Assembly (NCBI GenBank): GCA_903844635.1
Contig: CAIMUF010000052.1
Coordinates: 840-64,839, forward strand
Source of the DNA: an uncultured Sulfuricurvum sp.
GTDB taxonomy: Bacteria; Campylobacterota; Campylobacteria; Campylobacterales; Sulfurimonadaceae
DNA: 64,000 nt
Direction: 5' to 3'
Position 1 is the stretch's first letter; every line of letters begins with the position of its first letter. Below are positions 45,627-59,450 of this stretch, one piece after another. The notes beneath the pieces were generated by a model. It made no database searches. It had not been told where the DNA came from and saw only the letters and a program-made list of their open reading frames with translations. Both the position numbers and the translations under genes were made by a program.

Positions 45627-46466
45627 ATGAACTTTCCAAAAACAACCATTATTATCTCAGTTTATAAAGACACTGAAGCGCTTGGATTTATCTTGGAGAG
45701 TTTGGAACACCAAACCCTACCCGCTGATGAAATTATCGTTTCTGAAGATGGTGATTCATCTGAGATGCGCGATTATATCGCTACACAAAAATCTCGTTTC
45801 CCAAATCTCGTCCATCTCACCCAAAAAGATGACGGGTGGCGTAAAAATATCGCGATGAATAATGCTATCAAAGCCTCCTCTAATGAATACCTTATTTTTA
45901 TTGACGGTGACTGTGTCCCCTATGGTAACTTTATCCAAGGGCATATAGAAAATGCACAACACGGAATCGTATTGTGCGGTAAGCGGTTCGAGCTCGGACC
46001 AAAATTTACGAATAAAGTAAAAAATCATGTGCTAACAATCTCTAATATTGAAAAAAAGTTCCTATGGTATCTTCCTGCAATGCTTACCGATAATGCTCGC
46101 CATCCAGAAGATGGTTTTAGCTTTAAATCCCATTCCTTAATCAGCCGTCAAATCCATAAACGCTATGTTCGTCATATTATCGGATGTAACTGGTCATGCT
46201 ACAAAGAAGATTTTTTAAAAATCAACGGCTTTGACGAAACATATTGCCTGCCCGCTGAAGGAGAAGATGTCGATCCTAGCTGGCGTTTTAGGGGAATTGG
46301 TATTGAGCTTAAATCGTGCCGAAATAATGCCAACATCATTCATTTGTACCATCCTAAACGTTTTAGTGCAATCGAAGGAGATATAAATAAAGCGATTATG
46401 GAAAAGCATCAAGCAGAAAATGCATTTTTCTGCAAGAATGGGATAAATAAGCAGGAGTCTTTATGA
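45627..46466 (+). CDS. GT2 glycosyltransferase
   Basis: SEDGD, FIDGDC, NGFDE, HLYH. Confidence 0.87.
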   Translation: MNFPKTTIIISVYKDTEALGFILESLEHQTLPADEIIVSEDGDSSEMRDYIATQKSRFPNLVHLTQKDDGWRKNIAMNNAIKASSNEYLIFIDGDCVPYGNFIQGHIENAQHGIVLCGKRFELGPKFTNKVKNHVLTISNIEKKFLWYLPAMLTDNARHPEDGFSFKSHSLISRQIHKRYVRHIIGCNWSCYKEDFLKINGFDETYCLPAEGEDVDPSWRFRGIGIELKSCRNNANIIHLYHPKRFSAIEGDINKAIMEKHQAENAFFCKNGINKQESL

Positions 46467-47236
46467 AAGTTTTATTATTAGCCGGTGGCTACGGAACACG
46501 GTTAAGTGAAGAAACAGATATACGTCCCAAACCGATGGTAGAAATCGGTGGTAAACCGATCCTTTGGCATATTATGAAGACGTACAGTCAATATGGTTTT
46601 AATGAGTTTGTCATTCTTCTCGGCTACAAAGGTTATTTTATAAAAGAGTATTTTGCCAACTATTTTCTCCATCAAAGTGATGTAACTATCGATATGCAAA
46701 ACGGGAAGATGGAAGTCCTAAACAACTCTAGTGAACCTTGGAAAGTAACTCTTCTTGATACTGGATTAAACAGTATGACCGGAGGAAGAATAAAAAGAGC
46801 TCAAGATTTTATCGGTAATGAGCCGTTTATGCTTACTTATGGAGATGGTGTTAGTGACATCAATATAGATGAACTGGTAAAGTTTCACAAATCTCATGGT
46901 AAGGCAATGACCATGACATCCAATCAGCCAGATGGACGGTTTGGAGCATTGAATATCGAAGATAATGATCAAGTGACACACTTTCTGGAAAAACCAAAAG
47001 GTGACGGCGGATGGATCAATGCCGGTTATTTTGTTTGCGAGCCAAAAGTTTTCGATTATATTTGTGATGGTGACACTACTGTATTTGAACAAACACCACT
47101 TAAAAACCTTGCACTTGATAGAGAATTATTTACTTATAAACATGAAGGTTTTTGGTCCCCAATGGATAGCTTAAAAGATAAAAATGATCTCAATAAACTT
47201 TGGGATACCAATAAAGCTCCTTGGAAAGTTTGGTAA
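46463..47236 (+). CDS. rfbF: Glucose-1-phosphate cytidylyltransferase
   Basis: LAGGYGTRLSEET, MTGGRIKR, TYGDG. Confidence 0.95.
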   Translation: MKVLLLAGGYGTRLSEETDIRPKPMVEIGGKPILWHIMKTYSQYGFNEFVILLGYKGYFIKEYFANYFLHQSDVTIDMQNGKMEVLNNSSEPWKVTLLDTGLNSMTGGRIKRAQDFIGNEPFMLTYGDGVSDINIDELVKFHKSHGKAMTMTSNQPDGRFGALNIEDNDQVTHFLEKPKGDGGWINAGYFVCEPKVFDYICDGDTTVFEQTPLKNLALDRELFTYKHEGFWSPMDSLKDKNDLNKLWDTNKAPWKVW

Positions 47237-48330
47237 TGGATAATCTTTTTGGTGGTATCTATAAAGGTAAAATAGTCTTGGTCACTGGACATACAGGATT
47301 TAAAGGTTCATGGCTGGCATATTGGCTCACTCAAATGGGGGCAAATGTTATCGGGTACTCTTTAGAAGCACCAAGCGAGCCAAATCATATTGGACTTTTA
47401 AATCTCGACATTACCTCTATCATCGGAGATATTCGAGATCTGGATAGACTAAATGAAACATTTCAAACGTACCAACCGGATATCGTATTCCACCTAGCCG
47501 CCCAACCACTTGTAAGACTCTCCTATGAAAATCCGATCGAAACGTATGAAACCAATGTCATCGGAACACTCAAAGTATTCGAAGCATGCCGAGCCAACAG
47601 CGTCAAGGCTATCGTCAACATCACAAGTGATAAAGCCTATGAGAACCGAGAATGGGTATGGGGTTACCGTGAAAATGACCCTATGGGAGGATATGATCCC
47701 TACAGCTCATCCAAAGGCTGTGCCGATTTACTTGTCAACTCATACCGAAGCTCTTATTTCAATCCTGCCGAGTATAAAAAATCGCATAATACCCTCTTGG
47801 CATCTTGCCGTGCTGGAAATGTAATAGGTGGAGGCGACTGGGCAAAAGACCGTCTTATGACCGATATTATGCTTTCCGTCTCGCAAGGGAAAAAAGTTAG
47901 TATCCGAAATCCCAATGCTACTCGCCCGTGGCAACATGTCCTCGAACCACTTAGCGGGTATTTACATATTGGTCAAAAACTCCTTGAAGAAAAAGTGGAG
48001 TTCGGTGAAGCATGGAACTTCGGCCCAAGCGATGAGGGGAGTGTTACGGTCGAAACGGTCGTAAATCATGTCAAAACACATTGGGATAAAATCGACTACG
48101 AAATCACCCGTGATCCAAAGCAACTGCATGAAGCCAATTTGTTAAAACTCGATTGTTCAAAAGCCCATATCCGTTTAAAATGGAAAGATGTTTGGGATAG
48201 TGAAACAACTTTTGAAAAAACGGTGATGTGGTATAAAAACTTTTATGAAAATGATAGCGTTGGTACGACTGATGATTTGAATCACTATGTTTTGGATGCA
48301 AAAAAGAAAAATTTGGAGTGGAGTAAATAA
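47236..48330 (+). CDS. rfbG: CDP-glucose 4,6-dehydratase
   Basis: TGHTGFKGSWL, HLAAQPLVR, TSDKAY, RPWQHVLEP. Confidence 0.95.
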   Translation: MDNLFGGIYKGKIVLVTGHTGFKGSWLAYWLTQMGANVIGYSLEAPSEPNHIGLLNLDITSIIGDIRDLDRLNETFQTYQPDIVFHLAAQPLVRLSYENPIETYETNVIGTLKVFEACRANSVKAIVNITSDKAYENREWVWGYRENDPMGGYDPYSSSKGCADLLVNSYRSSYFNPAEYKKSHNTLLASCRAGNVIGGGDWAKDRLMTDIMLSVSQGKKVSIRNPNATRPWQHVLEPLSGYLHIGQKLLEEKVEFGEAWNFGPSDEGSVTVETVVNHVKTHWDKIDYEITRDPKQLHEANLLKLDCSKAHIRLKWKDVWDSETTFEKTVMWYKNFYENDSVGTTDDLNHYVLDAKKKNLEWSK

Positions 48331-49502
48331 TGAAAAGTTTATCTAATATTGCATATGAAATTGATGGTCAGCCAATGTTTAAAATACTTGATTTAGCTCA
48401 AAAACTTGAAAGACAAGGAAAAGAAATTCTTCATTTTGAGTTAGGTGAACCTGATTTCGATACACCTATTAATATAGTAAATGCGGCTTGTGATGCTTTA
48501 AACTCAGGTGACACTCACTATACAAGTTCAATGGGATTATATGATTTTAGAATAGTTGCGCAAAAAGCCACTCTTCAAAGTAGAGGTTTCTTGCCAACTA
48601 TTGATCAAGTGTTAGTTGCTCCTGGAGCGAATTCTATTATATATTTAGCAATTAAATGTTTAGTTAATCCAGGCGAGGAAGTTATTGTTCCAGATCCAGG
48701 GTTTCCTACGTATTACTCAGCTATTAAAGCTTGTGGAGCAAAAGCGGTAACAGTAAAATTAAAAGAAGAAAATCAATTCAGATTAGACCCAAATGATTTA
48801 GAAAATGCGATAACCAATAAAACAAGACTAATTATTTTAAATACTCCTAGTAATCCAACAGGTTCAGTAATGCTTCCTGATGAAATTAAACAAGTTGCAG
48901 AAATTGCAAGAAAACATGATATTTATTTATTAAGTGATGAAATATATGGAAGATTGATTTTTAATAATGAAAAATCATTTTTAAGTCCTTCATATATTGA
49001 TCATTGTAAAGAAAGAACTATTATCTTAAATGGTTTCAGTAAAGCTTTTGCAATGACAGGATGGCGACTTGGAGTAGCAATTGGACCAGAAGAAGTGATT
49101 GAAAAAATGGGTTTATTAGTTTCAACGATAGTCTCATGTGTTCCTCCTTTTATCCAAAGGGCTGGGATCGAAGCTATTACTGGTGATCAAAGTGCATTAG
49201 TAAAAATGAAGAATGAATATGATAGAAGACGAAAAATTTTGGTAGATGGATTAAATTCAATTGACGGTGTTAGCTGTATTGAACCTGATGGTGCTATTTA
49301 TGCATTTCCTAATATTTCTGGAACAGGTATGACTAGTGATGAGTTTGCAAATTTTGTTTTAGAAAAGGCTGGGGTGGCTCTTTTACCTGGTAATAATTTT
49401 GGAGAAGCTGGAGAAGGATTCGTGAGAATTTGTTACGTTAATACTTCTGACAATATAATAAAAGCTATAGAAAATATAAAAAAAGCTCTAAAGGATAGAT
49501 AA
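48330..49502 (+). CDS. Class I/II PLP-dependent aminotransferase
   Basis: GEPDFDTP, NTPSNPTG, SDEIY, GFSKAFAMTGWRLG. Confidence 0.9.
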   Translation: MKSLSNIAYEIDGQPMFKILDLAQKLERQGKEILHFELGEPDFDTPINIVNAACDALNSGDTHYTSSMGLYDFRIVAQKATLQSRGFLPTIDQVLVAPGANSIIYLAIKCLVNPGEEVIVPDPGFPTYYSAIKACGAKAVTVKLKEENQFRLDPNDLENAITNKTRLIILNTPSNPTGSVMLPDEIKQVAEIARKHDIYLLSDEIYGRLIFNNEKSFLSPSYIDHCKERTIILNGFSKAFAMTGWRLGVAIGPEEVIEKMGLLVSTIVSCVPPFIQRAGIEAITGDQSALVKMKNEYDRRRKILVDGLNSIDGVSCIEPDGAIYAFPNISGTGMTSDEFANFVLEKAGVALLPGNNFGEAGEGFVRICYVNTSDNIIKAIENIKKALKDR

Positions 49503-51302
49503 ATGAAAATGAGAGTTGCAGATTATGTTGCTAATTACATATATGATGAGTTAAATGTGCCAGAAGTATTTATGCTAACCGGTGGTGGAGCCATGTTTTT
49601 AAACGATGGAGTTGCAAAACATGATAAGTTAGATGTTATTTGTAATCATCATGAACAAGCTTGTGCAATGGGCGCAGTTGCTTATTCTAAGTATACAAAT
49701 AAAATAGGTGTTGCTTATGTAACTACTGGTTGTGGTGGAACAAATGCTATAACAGGGGTATTAGATGCGTGGCAAGATAGTACACAATGTCTCTTTATCT
49801 CTGGGCAGGTAAAGAAAAAAGAAACTTGTTATAACACTGATTTACCATTAAGACAATTCGGAGTACAAGAAGCAGATATAGTTGCTGTAGTAAAATCAAT
49901 TACAAAATATTCTGTGATGGTTAATGAACCAACTGAAATAGCATATCACTTAGAAAAGGCTGCTTATTTAGCAAAAAGTGGAAGACCTGGTCCAGTTTGG
50001 ATCGATATTCCATTAGATGTTCAGGGAGCTATTATTGATACAAATAATCTTAAACATTTTAGCGTTGAAGAATTAACTAAAGACTACAAAGAAGTTGTAG
50101 ACAGTAATGATATTGATGCAATAATAAAAATTTTAGAAAATGCAAAAAGACCTATGGTGATTGCTGGAAATGGTATTAGATTATCAGATACAGTAGCTGA
50201 ATTTAGTAAATTTATTGATAATACAAATATTCCAGTGACAACATCTTATTTGGCTATTGATTTAATGTCTACTGCTGATGAAAAATTTATAGGAAGATTA
50301 GGAACAAAAGGGGATAGATCTGGAAATTTTGCAATACAAAATGCAGATGTTGTTCTTGTATTAGGATCTAGGCTTAGCGTAGCATTAACAGGATTTGAGT
50401 ATGACTTATTTATGAGAGATGCAAAAGTAATAGTTGTAGATATTGATCAAAAAGAACATCAAAAAAATACGGTCAGAATAGATAAATTTGTGAATGCTCA
50501 TTTAAAAAATTTTTTTGAAAAAATAAATCAGAAGGTAATAAATCTAGATACAAAAGATTGGATTAAAAAATGTAATCATTGGAAAAATAAATGGCCCGTA
50601 GCTTTAGAAAGATATGAAAATGAAGAAAAAATAAATAAATACACATTTATAGATCATTTATGTAAATTCCTGAAAGAAGATACTGCAGTTGTTTCTGATG
50701 CTGGTTCATCTTATTATGTAACTTCTCAAGCATTACAAATTAGAGCAAACCAAAGATATATTACTTCAGGAGCACAAGCAGATATGGGTTTTACCCTTCC
50801 AGCTGCAATTGGAACTTGTTTTGCAAAAAAAGGCGAAGTTGTTGGGATTACTGGTGATGGTTCACTTCAGATGAATATTCAAGAACTACAAACTATGAAG
50901 CACTATAACTTACCTTTAAAACTTTTTGTATGGAACAATAATGGTTATCTTTCAATAAGAGCAACACAAAGAAAATTTTTTGATGGAAGAGCAATTGGAA
51001 CAGATAAAGACTCTGGCATTTCATTTCCAGAAGTTGAAAAAATAGCTTATGCATATGGAATTCAATATTTTATTGCAAAAGAAGTCTCAGAATTAGACAA
51101 TGTGTTGAGGGATGTAATGAATTATAATGGACCGGTCATTTGTGAAATAATTTGTCCTGAAAATCAAGAAATCATACCAACAACAGCTTCGATGAGAAAA
51201 GAAGATGGAACAATGGTGTCAAAACCGCTTGAAGACATGTATCCATTTTTAGACAGAGAAGAGTTCAAGAAAGAAATGATTATTAAGCCGTTGGATGAGT
51301 AA
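49503..51302 (+). CDS. ThDP-dependent acetolactate-synthase-like enzyme (YerE-like)
   Basis: TGGGAMFL, HHEQAC, GRPGPVWIDIP, GDGSLQMN..WNN. Confidence 0.88.
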   Translation: MKMRVADYVANYIYDELNVPEVFMLTGGGAMFLNDGVAKHDKLDVICNHHEQACAMGAVAYSKYTNKIGVAYVTTGCGGTNAITGVLDAWQDSTQCLFISGQVKKKETCYNTDLPLRQFGVQEADIVAVVKSITKYSVMVNEPTEIAYHLEKAAYLAKSGRPGPVWIDIPLDVQGAIIDTNNLKHFSVEELTKDYKEVVDSNDIDAIIKILENAKRPMVIAGNGIRLSDTVAEFSKFIDNTNIPVTTSYLAIDLMSTADEKFIGRLGTKGDRSGNFAIQNADVVLVLGSRLSVALTGFEYDLFMRDAKVIVVDIDQKEHQKNTVRIDKFVNAHLKNFFEKINQKVINLDTKDWIKKCNHWKNKWPVALERYENEEKINKYTFIDHLCKFLKEDTAVVSDAGSSYYVTSQALQIRANQRYITSGAQADMGFTLPAAIGTCFAKKGEVVGITGDGSLQMNIQELQTMKHYNLPLKLFVWNNNGYLSIRATQRKFFDGRAIGTDKDSGISFPEVEKIAYAYGIQYFIAKEVSELDNVLRDVMNYNGPVICEIICPENQEIIPTTASMRKEDGTMVSKPLEDMYPFLDREEFKKEMIIKPLDE

Positions 51303-52233
51303 TATGAAAATTCTGATCATCGGTGCCAACGGGTTTATAGGTAAACATTTACGTGAGCATTTGTCAAAAAACAGTGCCTACACGCTGTTGATGCCGGATA
51401 GTAAAACACTCAATCTTACCGATGAAACCAGTGTTGACACTTACATTCACGCCACGCAACCTGATATTGTCATCAACTGTGCTAATCGCGGAGGTGGTCG
51501 AGACAGTGGCAATGAAAATATTGTTCACGAGAATTTGCGGATGTTTTTTAACATCGTCAAGCACTCGGATAAAGTGTCGAAGATCATTCATTTCGGCAGC
51601 GGTGCAGAATACAGCAAGGATAAGCCGATTGTGAATGTCAAAGAGGAGGATGCAGATATGGCAATGCCTCTGGATGAATACGGGTTTTACAAATCTGTCT
51701 GCTCGAAATTCATCGAAAAAAGTGACAATAATCTCAATTTGAGAATTTTCGGCTGTTACGGTGAATATGAGAACTATGAGTTCAAATTTATCTCAAACGC
51801 CATTGTCAAAAATCTTTTGCATTTGCCCATAACGATCAATAAAAATGTCTTTTTCGATTATATTTATGTGGATGATTTGGTAAAAATTGTCGATCATTTT
51901 TTAGATCATGAGCGTAAACATAACGTTTACAATCTGACAACAGGCAAAAAAATCGATTTGATCACATTGGCAAATCTAGTGAATGAAACCAGCGATTTTA
52001 CTTCTGAAATCAAAGTGATTAATGAAGGGCTCAACAATGAGTACACCTCTGATAATAGTAAATTGATGGATGAGATCAGTAGATTTAAATTTACCGAGCA
52101 TCGCGAAGCCATTATACAAATGCGAAACTATTACAGCTCCATTTTGGATACAATCGATCGTAAAAAAATTGAAGCAGATCCTTATTTGCAACTGTGCACA
52201 TCATTTTGGAACAAACACGAGGAGAAAGAATGA
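51295..52233 (+). CDS. NAD-dependent epimerase/reductase
   Basis: GANGFIG, GSGAEY, YGFYK. Confidence 0.85.
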   Translation: MSNMKILIIGANGFIGKHLREHLSKNSAYTLLMPDSKTLNLTDETSVDTYIHATQPDIVINCANRGGGRDSGNENIVHENLRMFFNIVKHSDKVSKIIHFGSGAEYSKDKPIVNVKEEDADMAMPLDEYGFYKSVCSKFIEKSDNNLNLRIFGCYGEYENYEFKFISNAIVKNLLHLPITINKNVFFDYIYVDDLVKIVDHFLDHERKHNVYNLTTGKKIDLITLANLVNETSDFTSEIKVINEGLNNEYTSDNSKLMDEISRFKFTEHREAIIQMRNYYSSILDTIDRKKIEADPYLQLCTSFWNKHEEKE

Positions 52234-53555
52234 CCCAACAAGAAGCCTTAAAGCAAGAAATTTTAGCCAAGACCAAAGAGTATTATGAATTGGTTCATAA
52301 ACCGATGCAAGATAAAGAGTTTGTAGCCGGTAAAAGCCGCGTCAATTATGCAGGACGTGTATTCGATGAAAAAGAAATGATCAATCTCGTCGACAGTTCA
52401 CTCGATTTTTGGCTTACCTATGGTGATTATTCGAAACAATTTGAGAAAAAATTAGCAGACTATCTCGGAGTACGTTGGACATTTCTCGTCAACAGCGGCA
52501 GTTCGGCAAACCTTCTCGCCTTTTATGCCCTTACATCACCGTTGTTAGGTGATCGTCAGGTTAAACGCGGAGATGAAGTGATCACCGTTGCAGCAGGTTT
52601 TCCAACCACGGTTGCTCCTGTAGTTCAATATGGTGCTGTTCCCGTTTTTGTTGATATGGAATTAACCCATTTCAATATCGATGTAACTCAGTTTGAAGCA
52701 GCGCTAAGCCCAAAAACTAAAGCAATCATGATCGCCCATACCCTCGGTAATCCGTTTAACCTTCGAGCTGTCAAAGAGTTTTGTGATAAACACAACCTTT
52801 GGTTGATCGAGGACAACTGTGACGCACTCGGTTCTACATACGAAGGCAAACCAACAGGGACATGGGGAGACATCGGAACATCAAGCTTTTACCCACCGCA
52901 CCATATGACCATGGGTGAAGGTGGTGCGACATACACCGACAATCCACTCCTTAAAAAAATCATGCTCTCCATGCGTGACTGGGGACGCGACTGCTGGTGT
53001 GAAAGCGGTATTGATAACACCTGCGGATGCCGATTCTATCAAAGTTTTGGAACCTTGCCAAAAGGGTACGATCATAAATACGTGTATAGCCACTTCGGTT
53101 TCAATCTCAAAGTTTCCGATATGCAAGCGGCAATCGGTGTCGCACAACTCGAAAAATTCCCGACATTTGTTGAAAAGCGCAAAGAAAACTTCACAAAACT
53201 CTACAATGGGCTAAAAGGGGTAGATGCTCTAATCCTGAATGCTGCTACACCAAACAGTGATCCAAGCTGGTTTGGCTTTATAATCACCCTAAAAGACGGC
53301 GTACAATTTAGCCGTAATGAACTCGTAGAACATCTCGAAAACGCTAATATTCAGACCCGCAATCTTTTCGCCGGAAATATGCTCCGTCATCCGATGTTTG
53401 ATAGCATGGTACGAGATAGTGACTATAGAGTGGTTGGTGATTTACCGAATACAGACAAAATCATGAATGACAGTTTCTGGATCGGGCTTTATCCGGGGAT
53501 GGGTGATGAAGCAATTAAATATATGACAGAGACTATTAAAGCATATGTCAAATAG
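52230..53555 (+). CDS. rfbH: CDP-4-keto-6-deoxyglucose 3-dehydratase (E1)
   Basis: NSGSSANLLA, EDNCDALG, SFYPPHHMTMGEGG, DCWC...C Fe-S motif. Confidence 0.92.
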   Translation: MTQQEALKQEILAKTKEYYELVHKPMQDKEFVAGKSRVNYAGRVFDEKEMINLVDSSLDFWLTYGDYSKQFEKKLADYLGVRWTFLVNSGSSANLLAFYALTSPLLGDRQVKRGDEVITVAAGFPTTVAPVVQYGAVPVFVDMELTHFNIDVTQFEAALSPKTKAIMIAHTLGNPFNLRAVKEFCDKHNLWLIEDNCDALGSTYEGKPTGTWGDIGTSSFYPPHHMTMGEGGATYTDNPLLKKIMLSMRDWGRDCWCESGIDNTCGCRFYQSFGTLPKGYDHKYVYSHFGFNLKVSDMQAAIGVAQLEKFPTFVEKRKENFTKLYNGLKGVDALILNAATPNSDPSWFGFIITLKDGVQFSRNELVEHLENANIQTRNLFAGNMLRHPMFDSMVRDSDYRVVGDLPNTDKIMNDSFWIGLYPGMGDEAIKYMTETIKAYVK

Positions 53556-53601: not shown

Positions 53602-54498
53602 CTAAAGATCAAAATAGGTTTGACATTTTTCAACAAAGCGTATAACCGACTCATTTGATTCACGCTCTTGTTTCTCCATATACAGCAACAGCAAAGGACG
53701 GGTTTGAACTGCATACTCTACGTCATTAAATCCATACGCGATTCCGTAACGATTCTCTTCATTCGGCTGCCATTGCTCTTTAGTAATACCTTTTTCAGGG
53801 ATAACAATAGGAATGCATCCGCACATGACTGCATAAATGTGATACATAGTATATGTATCATATGATATACAATATTGTACTTGATTAAAAACCTTTGCCG
53901 TATCTTTATGCGATAACTTATCAATTAATATTGAATTAGTTATATTATGTTCAATCTCTCTCTTATATCCTTTTCGAAGCAAGTAACATGTCCCTTCTCG
54001 CGTATCAGGATTTGTTATTTTATACACATCAGATCTTTGCGAAATAATATGTAAATGATTATTAGAATATTTGTTATATCGACTATCATCAAATGCTTTA
54101 TCATAATAAAAAAATAGATCATTTGTTCCAAAATTTATCTTACCGCCATTATTAAATCCCGGTTTATGCAATAACCATCGAACCACATTTTTAGCTCTCA
54201 ATGGATTGCCAACAACTACTTCAGGGTATACAATAACTGCACCTTCTAAATCTGCATAATTTGCAGTTGGTGTATTAAGTCTATAATTTTTTTTAAATCC
54301 GTATTTTATTTGCTTACGAAAATATTTAATAAATAAATAAATTGTTTTAAAGGGATTAGTACAATTTAAAGCAGGCTTAAAAAATGGCCAAAGATATGAT
54401 TCATGGCCGAGGAGATTGAGTCTATCGCACAACTGATGAAGAACAACGATTCCACCTGCATTATCGTCATATCCTGGTGCAATTATAATAAATTTCAT
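53602..54498 (-). CDS. Putative glycosyltransferase-like protein (WavQ-like)
   Basis: GGIVVLHQLCDRL, YPEVVVGNPL, VRWLL, AVMCGCIPIVIP. Confidence 0.6.
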   Translation of the reverse strand: MKFIIIAPGYDDNAGGIVVLHQLCDRLNLLGHESYLWPFFKPALNCTNPFKTIYLFIKYFRKQIKYGFKKNYRLNTPTANYADLEGAVIVYPEVVVGNPLRAKNVVRWLLHKPGFNNGGKINFGTNDLFFYYDKAFDDSRYNKYSNNHLHIISQRSDVYKITNPDTREGTCYLLRKGYKREIEHNITNSILIDKLSHKDTAKVFNQVQYCISYDTYTMYHIYAVMCGCIPIVIPEKGITKEQWQPNEENRYGIAYGFNDVEYAVQTRPLLLLYMEKQERESNESVIRFVEKCQTYFDL

Positions 54499-54521
54499 AA
54501 ATACAGAGCCATATTTCAACT

Positions 54522-58025: not shown

Positions 58026-58265
58026 ATGTCAGCTACATTACGTAAAAATTTCGTTTTTGATGCCATAGTTGTCTCTCATTTGGAAGAAATTGCTCGTGTT
58101 GAAGGACTTTCATTGACAAAAGCAATTAATAATATGATTGAGCAACGATACGAAGAGATAGCAAAGCAAAAGAGGCTTGAGGCTGCAATGAGTATCGTAG
58201 GTAGTGCTTCTGGAGTATTTGGGAATCTAACGATTCAAGAAATTAAAGCCCAAATGGATGTTTAA
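58026..58265 (+). CDS. Putative antitoxin (RHH-like)
   Basis: 79 aa, RKNFVFD beta-strand followed by helices; overlaps the PIN gene. Confidence 0.65.
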   Translation: MSATLRKNFVFDAIVVSHLEEIARVEGLSLTKAINNMIEQRYEEIAKQKRLEAAMSIVGSASGVFGNLTIQEIKAQMDV

Positions 58266-58686
58266 GCGACTATTTTTGGATGCCAACATTTTGGTGGACT
58301 TTGTAGACGATATGAGACCATCTCATATTCAGAGCAAAAAAATAATCATTGATGCAATACAGAAAGATGTCCACCTTTTTACTAGCTGTGATATTGTAAC
58401 AACGGTTTATTATCTTAGTGCTAAAATAGACAAAAAGCAGGCACTCAATGAAATTACAAAAATCAACCGTTTTTGTAAAATTATCGACTTTTCAAACACC
58501 GATGTAGAACAAACCTGCGATTTAATGGCTCAAAATAGTGATTTCAAAGATTTAGAAGATACCATCCAATATATCCTCGCTAAAAAAGCTTTATGCGATT
58601 GTATTATCTCCAATGATAAAAACTTTTTGAGTCCTGATATTCTTCTCCTTAACAGTGAACAATTTTGTGAAAGGTTGGGATTATGA
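58258..58686 (+). CDS. PIN domain toxin (VapC-like)
   Basis: FLDANILVD, DLEDTIQY, IISNDKNF. Confidence 0.87.
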   Translation: MFKRLFLDANILVDFVDDMRPSHIQSKKIIIDAIQKDVHLFTSCDIVTTVYYLSAKIDKKQALNEITKINRFCKIIDFSNTDVEQTCDLMAQNSDFKDLEDTIQYILAKKALCDCIISNDKNFLSPDILLLNSEQFCERLGL

Positions 58687-59450
58687 AAATTTCATTGACC
58701 ACTCCACTTCAATATACATATCTCGCCAGCTCCTTTGAATCGATTCAAAAAATCTTTGCCGACGATAATCGCTCTATCCACAAAGCACGCAATGAACTGA
58801 AAATTATTGAGATAGAGGGAATCAAAACGGTCGTCAAATCGTTCAAAGTACCTCATCTGCTTAACCGTATTGTGTATACTTTTTTTCGAAAAAGCAAAGC
58901 GTACAAATCGTACCATAATGCACTTCACTTACGGGAATTAAACATCTCTACCCCCGAACCCATTGCGTTGATCGAATTTTTCGAATCAAATCTTTTAGGG
59001 GAGAGTTATTTTATCTCAGAATTTTTCGACTACGATTTCACCATCCGTACCCCGCTTCTTGAACCCTTGGAAGATAGAGAAGCCATTTTTACCGCCTTCG
59101 CTGCTTATACCTACACCTTGCACCAAAAAGGAATATGGCATCTCGATTATTCGCCCGGTAATATTCTCATTAAACGAACAGAGAGTGGATATCAATTTAG
59201 TATTGTTGACATCAATCGAATGGAGTTTAGAGAAATTGGCCCGCTACAGGGTTGTGAAAACTTTAATAAACTCTGGGCGAGCGATGAAGAACTGGAAATT
59301 ATGGGGCGGGAATATGCAAGGTTGAGCAGTTTTAATGTGGCAGTCACCATCGCCGAAATGAAGCGTCATAATGATGCCAACAAGCGAGTTAAGAATTTCA
59401 AGAAAAAGCTTAAGAAAGTGCTAAAAGGCGATTTTTCAATTCTTTCTTAA
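58683..59450 (+). CDS. Lipopolysaccharide kinase (Kdo/WaaP family)
   Basis: VVKSFK, TPEP, HLDYSPGNIL, VDINRM. Confidence 0.82.
   Translation: MKISLTTPLQYTYLASSFESIQKIFADDNRSIHKARNELKIIEIEGIKTVVKSFKVPHLLNRIVYTFFRKSKAYKSYHNALHLRELNISTPEPIALIEFFESNLLGESYFISEFFDYDFTIRTPLLEPLEDREAIFTAFAAYTYTLHQKGIWHLDYSPGNILIKRTESGYQFSIVDINRMEFREIGPLQGCENFNKLWASDEELEIMGREYARLSSFNVAVTIAEMKRHNDANKRVKNFKKKLKKVLKGDFSILS

Follow-up and report, generated by a model that had tools for sequence, protein, structure and literature searches.

A seven-gene operon in a 64,000-nucleotide stretch of DNA from an uncultured Sulfuricurvum sp. (contig CAIMUF010000052.1; the whole stretch is referred to here as the window) probably makes a CDP-activated 3,6-dideoxy-4-C-branched hexose for lipopolysaccharide (LPS), with a class I aminotransferase (AT) supplying an amino-acid-derived, and probably non-pyruvate, donor for the branching step. 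Judged from the sequences, the probability of this reading is put at roughly 0.6. The source assembly (Campylobacterales; 2.67 Mb, 86 contigs, 96.4% complete) carries the operon at 45627-53555 (+), in the order GT2 glycosyltransferase, RfbF, RfbG, AT, a thiamine diphosphate (ThDP)-dependent enzyme, a short-chain dehydrogenase/reductase (SDR) and RfbH, the E1 enzyme. A preliminary description of this DNA had proposed a yersiniose-type pathway to a CDP-3,6-dideoxy branched sugar, formed by RfbF, RfbG, AT, ThDP enzyme, reductase and RfbH. Profile matches bear out both the content and the order of this set, and the type of pathway is supported as well.

The role proposed for the AT comes mainly from the identity of the gene beside the ThDP enzyme in related loci. 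The AT was scanned against species-representative genomes and the ThDP enzyme against metagenomes, the latter returning 80 loci; supplier counts refer to 61 loci, pooled from both sources and including the window, in which both flanks were readable. AT homologues were found in five lineages (Campylobacterales, Opitutia, a Bathymodiolus endosymbiont, Omnitrophota and Planctomycetia), and in the genome scan every homologue of at least 53% identity has a ThDP-enzyme homologue directly downstream. The AT immediately precedes the ThDP gene in 37/61 readable loci, comprising 36 of AT type (the window among them) and locus L058, which has an AT plus DmpF/DmpG, and a PanB-like ketopantoate hydroxymethyltransferase (PF02548, ~300 bits) abuts the ThDP gene in 24/61. 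None of the 61 has a ThDP gene without a supplier neighbour, and none combines an AT with a PanB-like gene. Aldolases take this place in two partly readable loci: a DmpG-type and an HpaI-type aldolase together with an acetaldehyde dehydrogenase in L065, and matches to DmpG-type and HpaI-type aldolases in L081. The ThDP gene has an SDR gene after it in 24/29 AT-type loci and in 21/22 of the PanB type, with one more, L010, recognised by Pfam.

As AT, PanB-like and aldolase genes occupy the same position in a mutually exclusive manner while the reductase stays, this position is favoured, on comparative grounds, as a “2-oxo-acid supplier” slot, and the AT as the putative donor supplier of the window operon. 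The co-occurrence analysis named as a check in the preliminary description shows that the pairing of the AT with a YerE-like gene is not due to chance; the AT had there been called unexpected, which did not hold, the pair being common in metagenomes and spread over several phyla. Pathways that combine an aminotransferase with a decarboxylase in phosphonate, taurine or Ehrlich-type metabolism were considered and rejected, as the pair is always found among nucleotide-sugar genes and its ThDP enzyme belongs to the YerE-like group.

Two roles had been offered for the AT, the supply of a non-pyruvate 2-oxo acid and amination of the branch; the supplier swaps with retention of the SDR favour the first and leave the second the weaker. 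Amination would place the AT after branching, where it would convert the C-1' ketone of the acyl branch to an amine, giving a 4-C-(1-aminoalkyl) sugar and leaving the SDR to act elsewhere, for example in epimerisation. Transamination is among the known later modifications of ThDP-made alpha-hydroxy ketones, according to a review (PMC12247030), and an invariant arginine of the AT, Arg366, could serve solely to bind glutamate as amino donor. However, the enzymes that the AT excludes are those forming 2-oxo acids (PanB-like enzymes and aldolases) and not the SDR, and as the SDR is kept in AT-type and PanB-type loci alike, the side-chain ketone already has a reductase. Sugar-ketone aminotransferases are generally of the DegT type, whereas this AT is of the aspartate/aromatic aminotransferase (AspAT/ArAT) type, with 46-47%-identical homologues in Thorarchaeota and Ignavibacteria that have no adjoining ThDP gene (three loci from metagenome-assembled genomes (MAGs), with unannotated surroundings). 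Amination of the branch is therefore considered unlikely.

Supply of a donor by the AT could also be reconciled with plain yersiniose, if the enzyme were an alanine aminotransferase raising local pyruvate for a YerE-type acetyl transfer. YerE itself uses pyruvate, JanthE, the nearest solved relative of the ThDP enzyme, accepts it too (PMC12188165), and the sequences are compatible with alanine as the AT substrate. Pyruvate, however, is central to metabolism, so there seems little need for a supplier of it that is both dedicated and strictly conserved; sister loci fill the same slot with enzymes that make non-pyruvate acids; and a supplier is present in all the readable loci of this ThDP subfamily, unlike the Yersinia cluster as described (PMC9306805). 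Plain yersiniose is thus an unlikely product, and a donor other than pyruvate is preferred.

The AT (48330-49502, +; TAATG overlap with the rfbG stop) is a class Ib, aspartate/aromatic-type, pyridoxal phosphate (PLP)-dependent aminotransferase. Its score of 235 bits against PF00155, compared with only 45 bits for the DegT model, agrees with its earlier placement in class I/II and outside the DegT type. None of the NCBIfam equivalogs attains its cut-off, with the highest-scoring aspartate aminotransferase equivalog giving 340 bits where 624 are required, and in the PDB the top match is 1DJU, an aromatic aminotransferase from P. horikoshii (287 bits). This enzyme (1DJU/1GD9, class Ib AspAT family) is the closest solved relative; both proteins have Asn at the equivalent of Thermus Lys109, and Phe for Trp in the PxPxF/W motif.

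Residue conservation was analysed in 44 cluster-linked homologues and four outgroups, including the genome's own 36%-identical paralogue. The SK motif with the PLP-binding Lys, NPTG, an SDEIY-type motif and Arg366 are invariant in the 44, as is an N-terminal GQPMF motif in the lid region, which the P. horikoshii enzyme does not share; the clade is also fixed beside a sugar-branching enzyme. Asn101 is invariant across the clade, with Lys at the same site in 4/4 outgroups, and the AT is without the acidic-side-chain-binding Lys (Thermus Lys109 equivalent) that is a hallmark of aspartate aminotransferases proper. Because this Lys is replaced by an invariant Asn, as in the P. horikoshii aromatic enzyme, the sequence points to a neutral amino acid as substrate. 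Arg277, near the region of AspAT Arg292*, was considered as a specificity residue and dropped, since it is not conserved in the clade.

The adjoining ThDP enzyme (49503-51302, +; beginning 0 nt past the AT stop) is a YerE/JanthE-like carboligase and the proposed C-4 branching enzyme. All three ThDP-enzyme domains match (PF02776, PF00205 and PF02775), a canonical ThDP/Mg motif, GDGS...NN, lies at residue 451, and the HHEQA of the cofactor-activating Glu aligns with HHEQA in JanthE. Among PDB entries the best matches are 8rph (JanthE, 425 bits) and 5ahk (PpYerE, 288 bits), with acetolactate synthases (ALS) at 224 bits or below, and NCBIfam ALS equivalogs give scores far under every cut-off. By sequence, the enzyme belongs to the YerE-like group and is nearer to characterised members of it than to acetolactate synthases. 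Carboligation of a 2-oxo acid onto a keto-sugar, its putative reaction, would be in keeping with the genomic context, as rfbF, rfbG and rfbH share its operon. JanthE (Janthinobacterium sp. HH01), its best solved relative, aligns over the full length, C-terminal extension included, and differs in having CDG in place of the canonical GDG of the ThDP motif; its donors span a broad set of 2-oxo acids, C3 to C6, pyruvate included (PMC12188165).

A search for ThDP-enzyme residues that track the partner type gave none, as no alignment column separates AT-type from PanB- or aldolase-type enzymes, so the donor is not readable from the ThDP sequence. In the ThDP tree, partner type switches at least four times across well-supported branches, and enzymes with different partners may share 83% identity (aldolase-type vs AT-type). 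This identity, together with the lack of a discriminating column, suggests that the three supply routes probably deliver chemically similar donors.

In the proposed pathway, RfbF (rfbF/ddhA, glucose-1-phosphate cytidylyltransferase; 46463-47236, +; TIGR02623, 411 bits vs cut-off 300) and RfbG (rfbG/ddhB, CDP-glucose 4,6-dehydratase; 47221-48330, +; TIGR02622, 481 bits vs cut-off 278) would yield CDP-4-keto-6-deoxyglucose, in keeping with the established functions of their families, from which RfbH (rfbH/ddhC, CDP-6-deoxy-4-hexulose 3-dehydrase; 52194-53555, +; NF011936, 726 bits vs cut-off 423), an E1 of the Fe-S/pyridoxamine phosphate (PMP) type, would take off the 3-hydroxyl. The AT would turn an amino acid into its 2-oxo acid, which the ThDP enzyme, by homology with YerE and ErwE, would decarboxylate, adding the acyl-anion equivalent to the C-4 ketone. 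The SDR (51295-52233, +; Epimerase/RmlD fold; PF01370, 93.9 bits), which is YerF-like by position alone, is the proposed side-chain ketone reductase and would act on the new ketone as YerF does. The coupled GT2 (45627-46466, +; PF00535, 63.6 bits; stop overlapping the rfbF start as ATGA), a candidate branched-sugar transferase, would probably then transfer the finished sugar. On inspection, all junctions are ATGA/TAATG overlaps or a 0-nt gap, and the seven translationally coupled genes thus form one operon. Likely true starts are the ATG at 47236 for rfbG, which overlaps rfbF in a TAATG, and the ATG at 52230 for rfbH, with GAGGAG ahead of it and an ATGA overlap with the SDR stop.

The proposed arrangement follows a scheme described by Steitz et al. 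2022 (PMC9306805): a special 2-oxo acid is made by genes next to the YerE-like enzyme, which couples it as donor to CDP-4-keto-3,6-dideoxyglucose, and reduction by an SDR comes last. ErwI/ErwJ make 4-hydroxy-2-oxopentanoate for ErwE, which rejects pyruvate, and both ErwE and MyGE accept 4-hydroxy-2-oxobutanoate; transamination is a laboratory route to such 2-oxo acids (PMC9306805). As the aldolases and the PanB-type enzymes both yield 4-hydroxy-2-oxo acids, to which homoserine would be the transaminase counterpart, the leading, though tentative, candidate by analogy is L-homoserine, which would be converted to 4-hydroxy-2-oxobutanoate and hence give a 1,3-dihydroxypropyl branch. Alternative donor amino acids are methionine or a hydrophobic or aromatic amino acid. 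More broadly, there is a little under an even chance that LPS sugars of an undescribed family, with an amino-acid-derived C-4 side chain (for example 1,3-dihydroxypropyl from homoserine, or thioether or hydrophobic from Met, Leu or Phe), are the products of the AT-ThDP-SDR module, with E1 reduced by a donor other than E3, such as ferredoxin or flavodoxin.

Several observations weigh against assigning donor supply to the AT, or against the donor named. Many of the metagenomic loci are near-duplicates, and the counts given above overstate the number of independent cases. In L058 (160-8944), an AT and a DmpFG aldolase occur in one locus, although this could be explained by the presence of two ThDP genes, each with a neighbouring supplier. 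The failure of any ThDP residue pattern to follow partner type means that there is no visible co-adaptation of enzyme and supplier. Use of glutamate as a mere amino donor in the amination of a ketone would need an Arg for the alpha-carboxylate too, and conservation of Arg366 is therefore compatible with branch amination. The homoserine proposal, finally, is drawn from a chemical analogy with the aldolase and PanB products and from the acceptance of 4-hydroxy-2-oxobutanoate by ErwE (PMC9306805).

The deoxygenation step has features of its own. RfbH carries C209-x57-C267-x-C269-x7-C277, a spacing (C-x57-C-x-C-x7-C) which we take to be the [2Fe-2S] motif of Yersinia E1, and the Cys motif is present in 19/22 RfbH orthologues of at least 50% identity. 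The preliminary description had noted that the window contains no E3 reductase (ddhD/rfbI), and this extends to the whole 96.4%-complete assembly, which has no match to PF00175 or PF00970, nor to the E3-like ORF of L084; control genomes mostly do have PF00175/PF00970 matches. The absence is no oddity, as loci without E3 are the rule in the cassette family: in the loci retrieved, 15/19 motif-bearing RfbH orthologues have no E3-like gene nearby. Our guess is that E1 is reduced by ferredoxin or flavodoxin in place of E3. An intact Fe-S E1 without an E3-type reductase leads one to ask what drives C-3 deoxygenation in organisms of this kind.

The lack of E3 in the genome also lends itself to another explanation of the AT, in which it would act on the nucleotide-sugar ring, for example converting a 4-keto to a 4-amino group, or regenerate PMP for E1 instead of E3, without being tied to the ThDP step. 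ColD-type 3-dehydratases do run on transamination chemistry. Yet the AT tracks the ThDP gene and not RfbH, with the pair in L013 and L016 existing without RfbF or RfbH; PanB-type loci with the same E1 are likewise without E3; and the window E1 retains its Fe-S motif. A ring-directed or PMP-regenerating AT is accordingly regarded as very improbable, and supply of the ThDP donor remains the preferred role.

The AT and ThDP genes differ in base composition from their neighbours, as the preliminary description had remarked in calling the pair (48330-51302) visibly more AT-rich than rfbG and rfbH. The GC and codon profile confirms this and reveals a larger effect than is visible to a reader. The pair has a GC content of 0.318, against a genome mean of 0.399 (SD 0.028), with only ~1% of same-length genome windows at or below this value. 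The AT-richness is confined to third codon positions (GC3 0.141 in the AT gene and 0.163 in the ThDP gene, vs 0.386 in rfbG, 0.438 in the SDR gene and 0.410 in rfbH), GC1 and GC2 being normal. DNA identity was compared gene by gene with two low-GC Campylobacterota loci, L012 (Sulfurospirillum UBA6810) and L034, and is 90-91% for the AT gene, 88-89% for the ThDP gene, 75-79% for rfbF and rfbG and 67% for the SDR gene. Unlike the pair, the SDR gene and rfbH are nearest to L041.

The same description had spoken of an insert, which is not what the relatives indicate. L009, L035 and L041 share the order F-G-AT-ThDP-SDR-H and carry the pair with locally matched composition. Because the pair is present in every relative with this gene order, the block looks like an allelic replacement and not an addition of genes, and de novo insertion was rejected. 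From the sequences, the most plausible account of the AT-rich block is a recombinational allele swap that took in precisely the AT and ThDP genes, with a low-GC relative as the source. In L034, a close relative of the window locus, a 6-kb island (L034:580-6610) lies exactly between rfbG and the AT gene. It encodes a cytidine-deaminase-domain protein, two DUF488 proteins, DuOB and DUF4238 proteins and two ORFs without a family, and looks like a set of anti-phage defence genes. Its position at the rfbG|AT junction, which is also the compositional breakpoint of the window, fits a breakpoint hotspot.

Compared with the yersiniose A pathway of Y. pseudotuberculosis (DdhA-DdhB-DdhC/E1-DdhD/E3, YerE, YerF), the window operon has in common the genes for CDP-glucose activation, 4,6-dehydration and E1 3-deoxygenation, followed by a YerE-like ThDP carboligase and an SDR, in an LPS locus. 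It differs in that the assembly is without E3/DdhD, so that the full yersiniose set is not encountered, and in having a class I AT as an extra gene, coupled to that of the ThDP enzyme; this enzyme is, in addition, closer to JanthE than to PpYerE by the scores above, and its donor is probably not pyruvate. The erwiniose, caryophyllose and gastriose clusters (ErwI/ErwJ-ErwE-ErwF; MMAR_2331-2332; MygI-MyGE-MygF; PMC9306805) follow the same logic of supplier, ThDP enzyme and SDR, and the operon matches the architecture of the published scheme (PMC9306805), with a putative supplier gene beside the ThDP gene and an SDR after it. Sister loci L065 and L081 carry DmpFG/HpaI aldolases, the supplier set published for erwiniose. 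The erwiniose-type supplier is an aldolase, whereas that of the window would be a PLP aminotransferase, so the donor would derive from an amino acid.

Taken by sequence, the AT-ThDP cassette is a real and widespread variant of the known yersiniose/erwiniose pathway type. No aminotransferase or PanB-type supplier for YerE-like enzymes was found in the literature searched, a search that did not take in a catalogue from 2024, in which Krug et al. reportedly list >200 YerE-like clusters. The comparative data suggest a modular rule, whereby the side chain can be foretold from the gene that adjoins the ThDP gene, with aldolases as the known supplier type and two apparently undescribed types here, the aminotransferase and the PanB-like enzyme. 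If this rule is true, dozens of environmental lineages would make undescribed sugars. The antigenic surface of Gram-negative bacteria owes its character in part to branched deoxysugars. There is also demand for YerE-like enzymes as catalysts in the synthesis of chiral tertiary alcohols, and an amino acid with an AT would then be a simple feed of new donors to such biocatalysts.

The PanB-like gene itself looks like a second, apparently undescribed, type of donor supplier for branched sugars, its likely product being ketopantoate-like or another 4-hydroxy-2-oxo acid. Examples include L084:3600-4595, L074:6943-7968, L063:166-1161 and L104:9778-10707, with ~20 more (L085-L113). The two complete branching modules of L058, AT-ThDP followed by DmpF-DmpG-SDR-ThDP (38% identity)-SDR, suggest two different branched sugars or two sequential branchings.

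Loci L013 (9-14284) and L016 (17-11114), from Omnitrophota and Planctomycetia MAGs, have the AT-ThDP pair in a cluster with an NDP-hexose 4,6-dehydratase, a B12-binding radical SAM enzyme, a split transketolase, aldo-keto reductases, a GHMP kinase and a 3,5-epimerase (fusion). A distinct and more complex route to a branched sugar is indicated, and the presence of the pair without RfbH would tie it to sugar branching in general and not to RfbH. Seven marine AT-type loci (L061, L062, L064, L066, L069, L070 and L076) have a DegT-like gene just upstream of the AT gene, in the E1 position, encoding a protein 31-33% identical to RfbH and without the Cys motif; in these the acceptor sugar may not be 3-deoxygenated via the E1 route.

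The operon is surrounded by LPS genes, including a WbaP-type initiating transferase, two GT9 heptosyltransferases, a Wzy_C/WaaL-type ligase, several GT1, GT2 and GT4 genes and a polysaccharide deacetylase. Directly downstream and convergent, next to GT2 and GT4 genes, a 305-aa ORF at 53602-54519 (-) has no Pfam match and a low GC content (0.319; GC3 0.225) and may be an unrecognised glycosyltransferase or polymerase. Elsewhere in the LPS region, a deacetylase gene and a GT9 gene flank a PIN-domain gene (142 aa) and, overlapping its end, an ORF of 255 aa without a family match (58258-59450, +).

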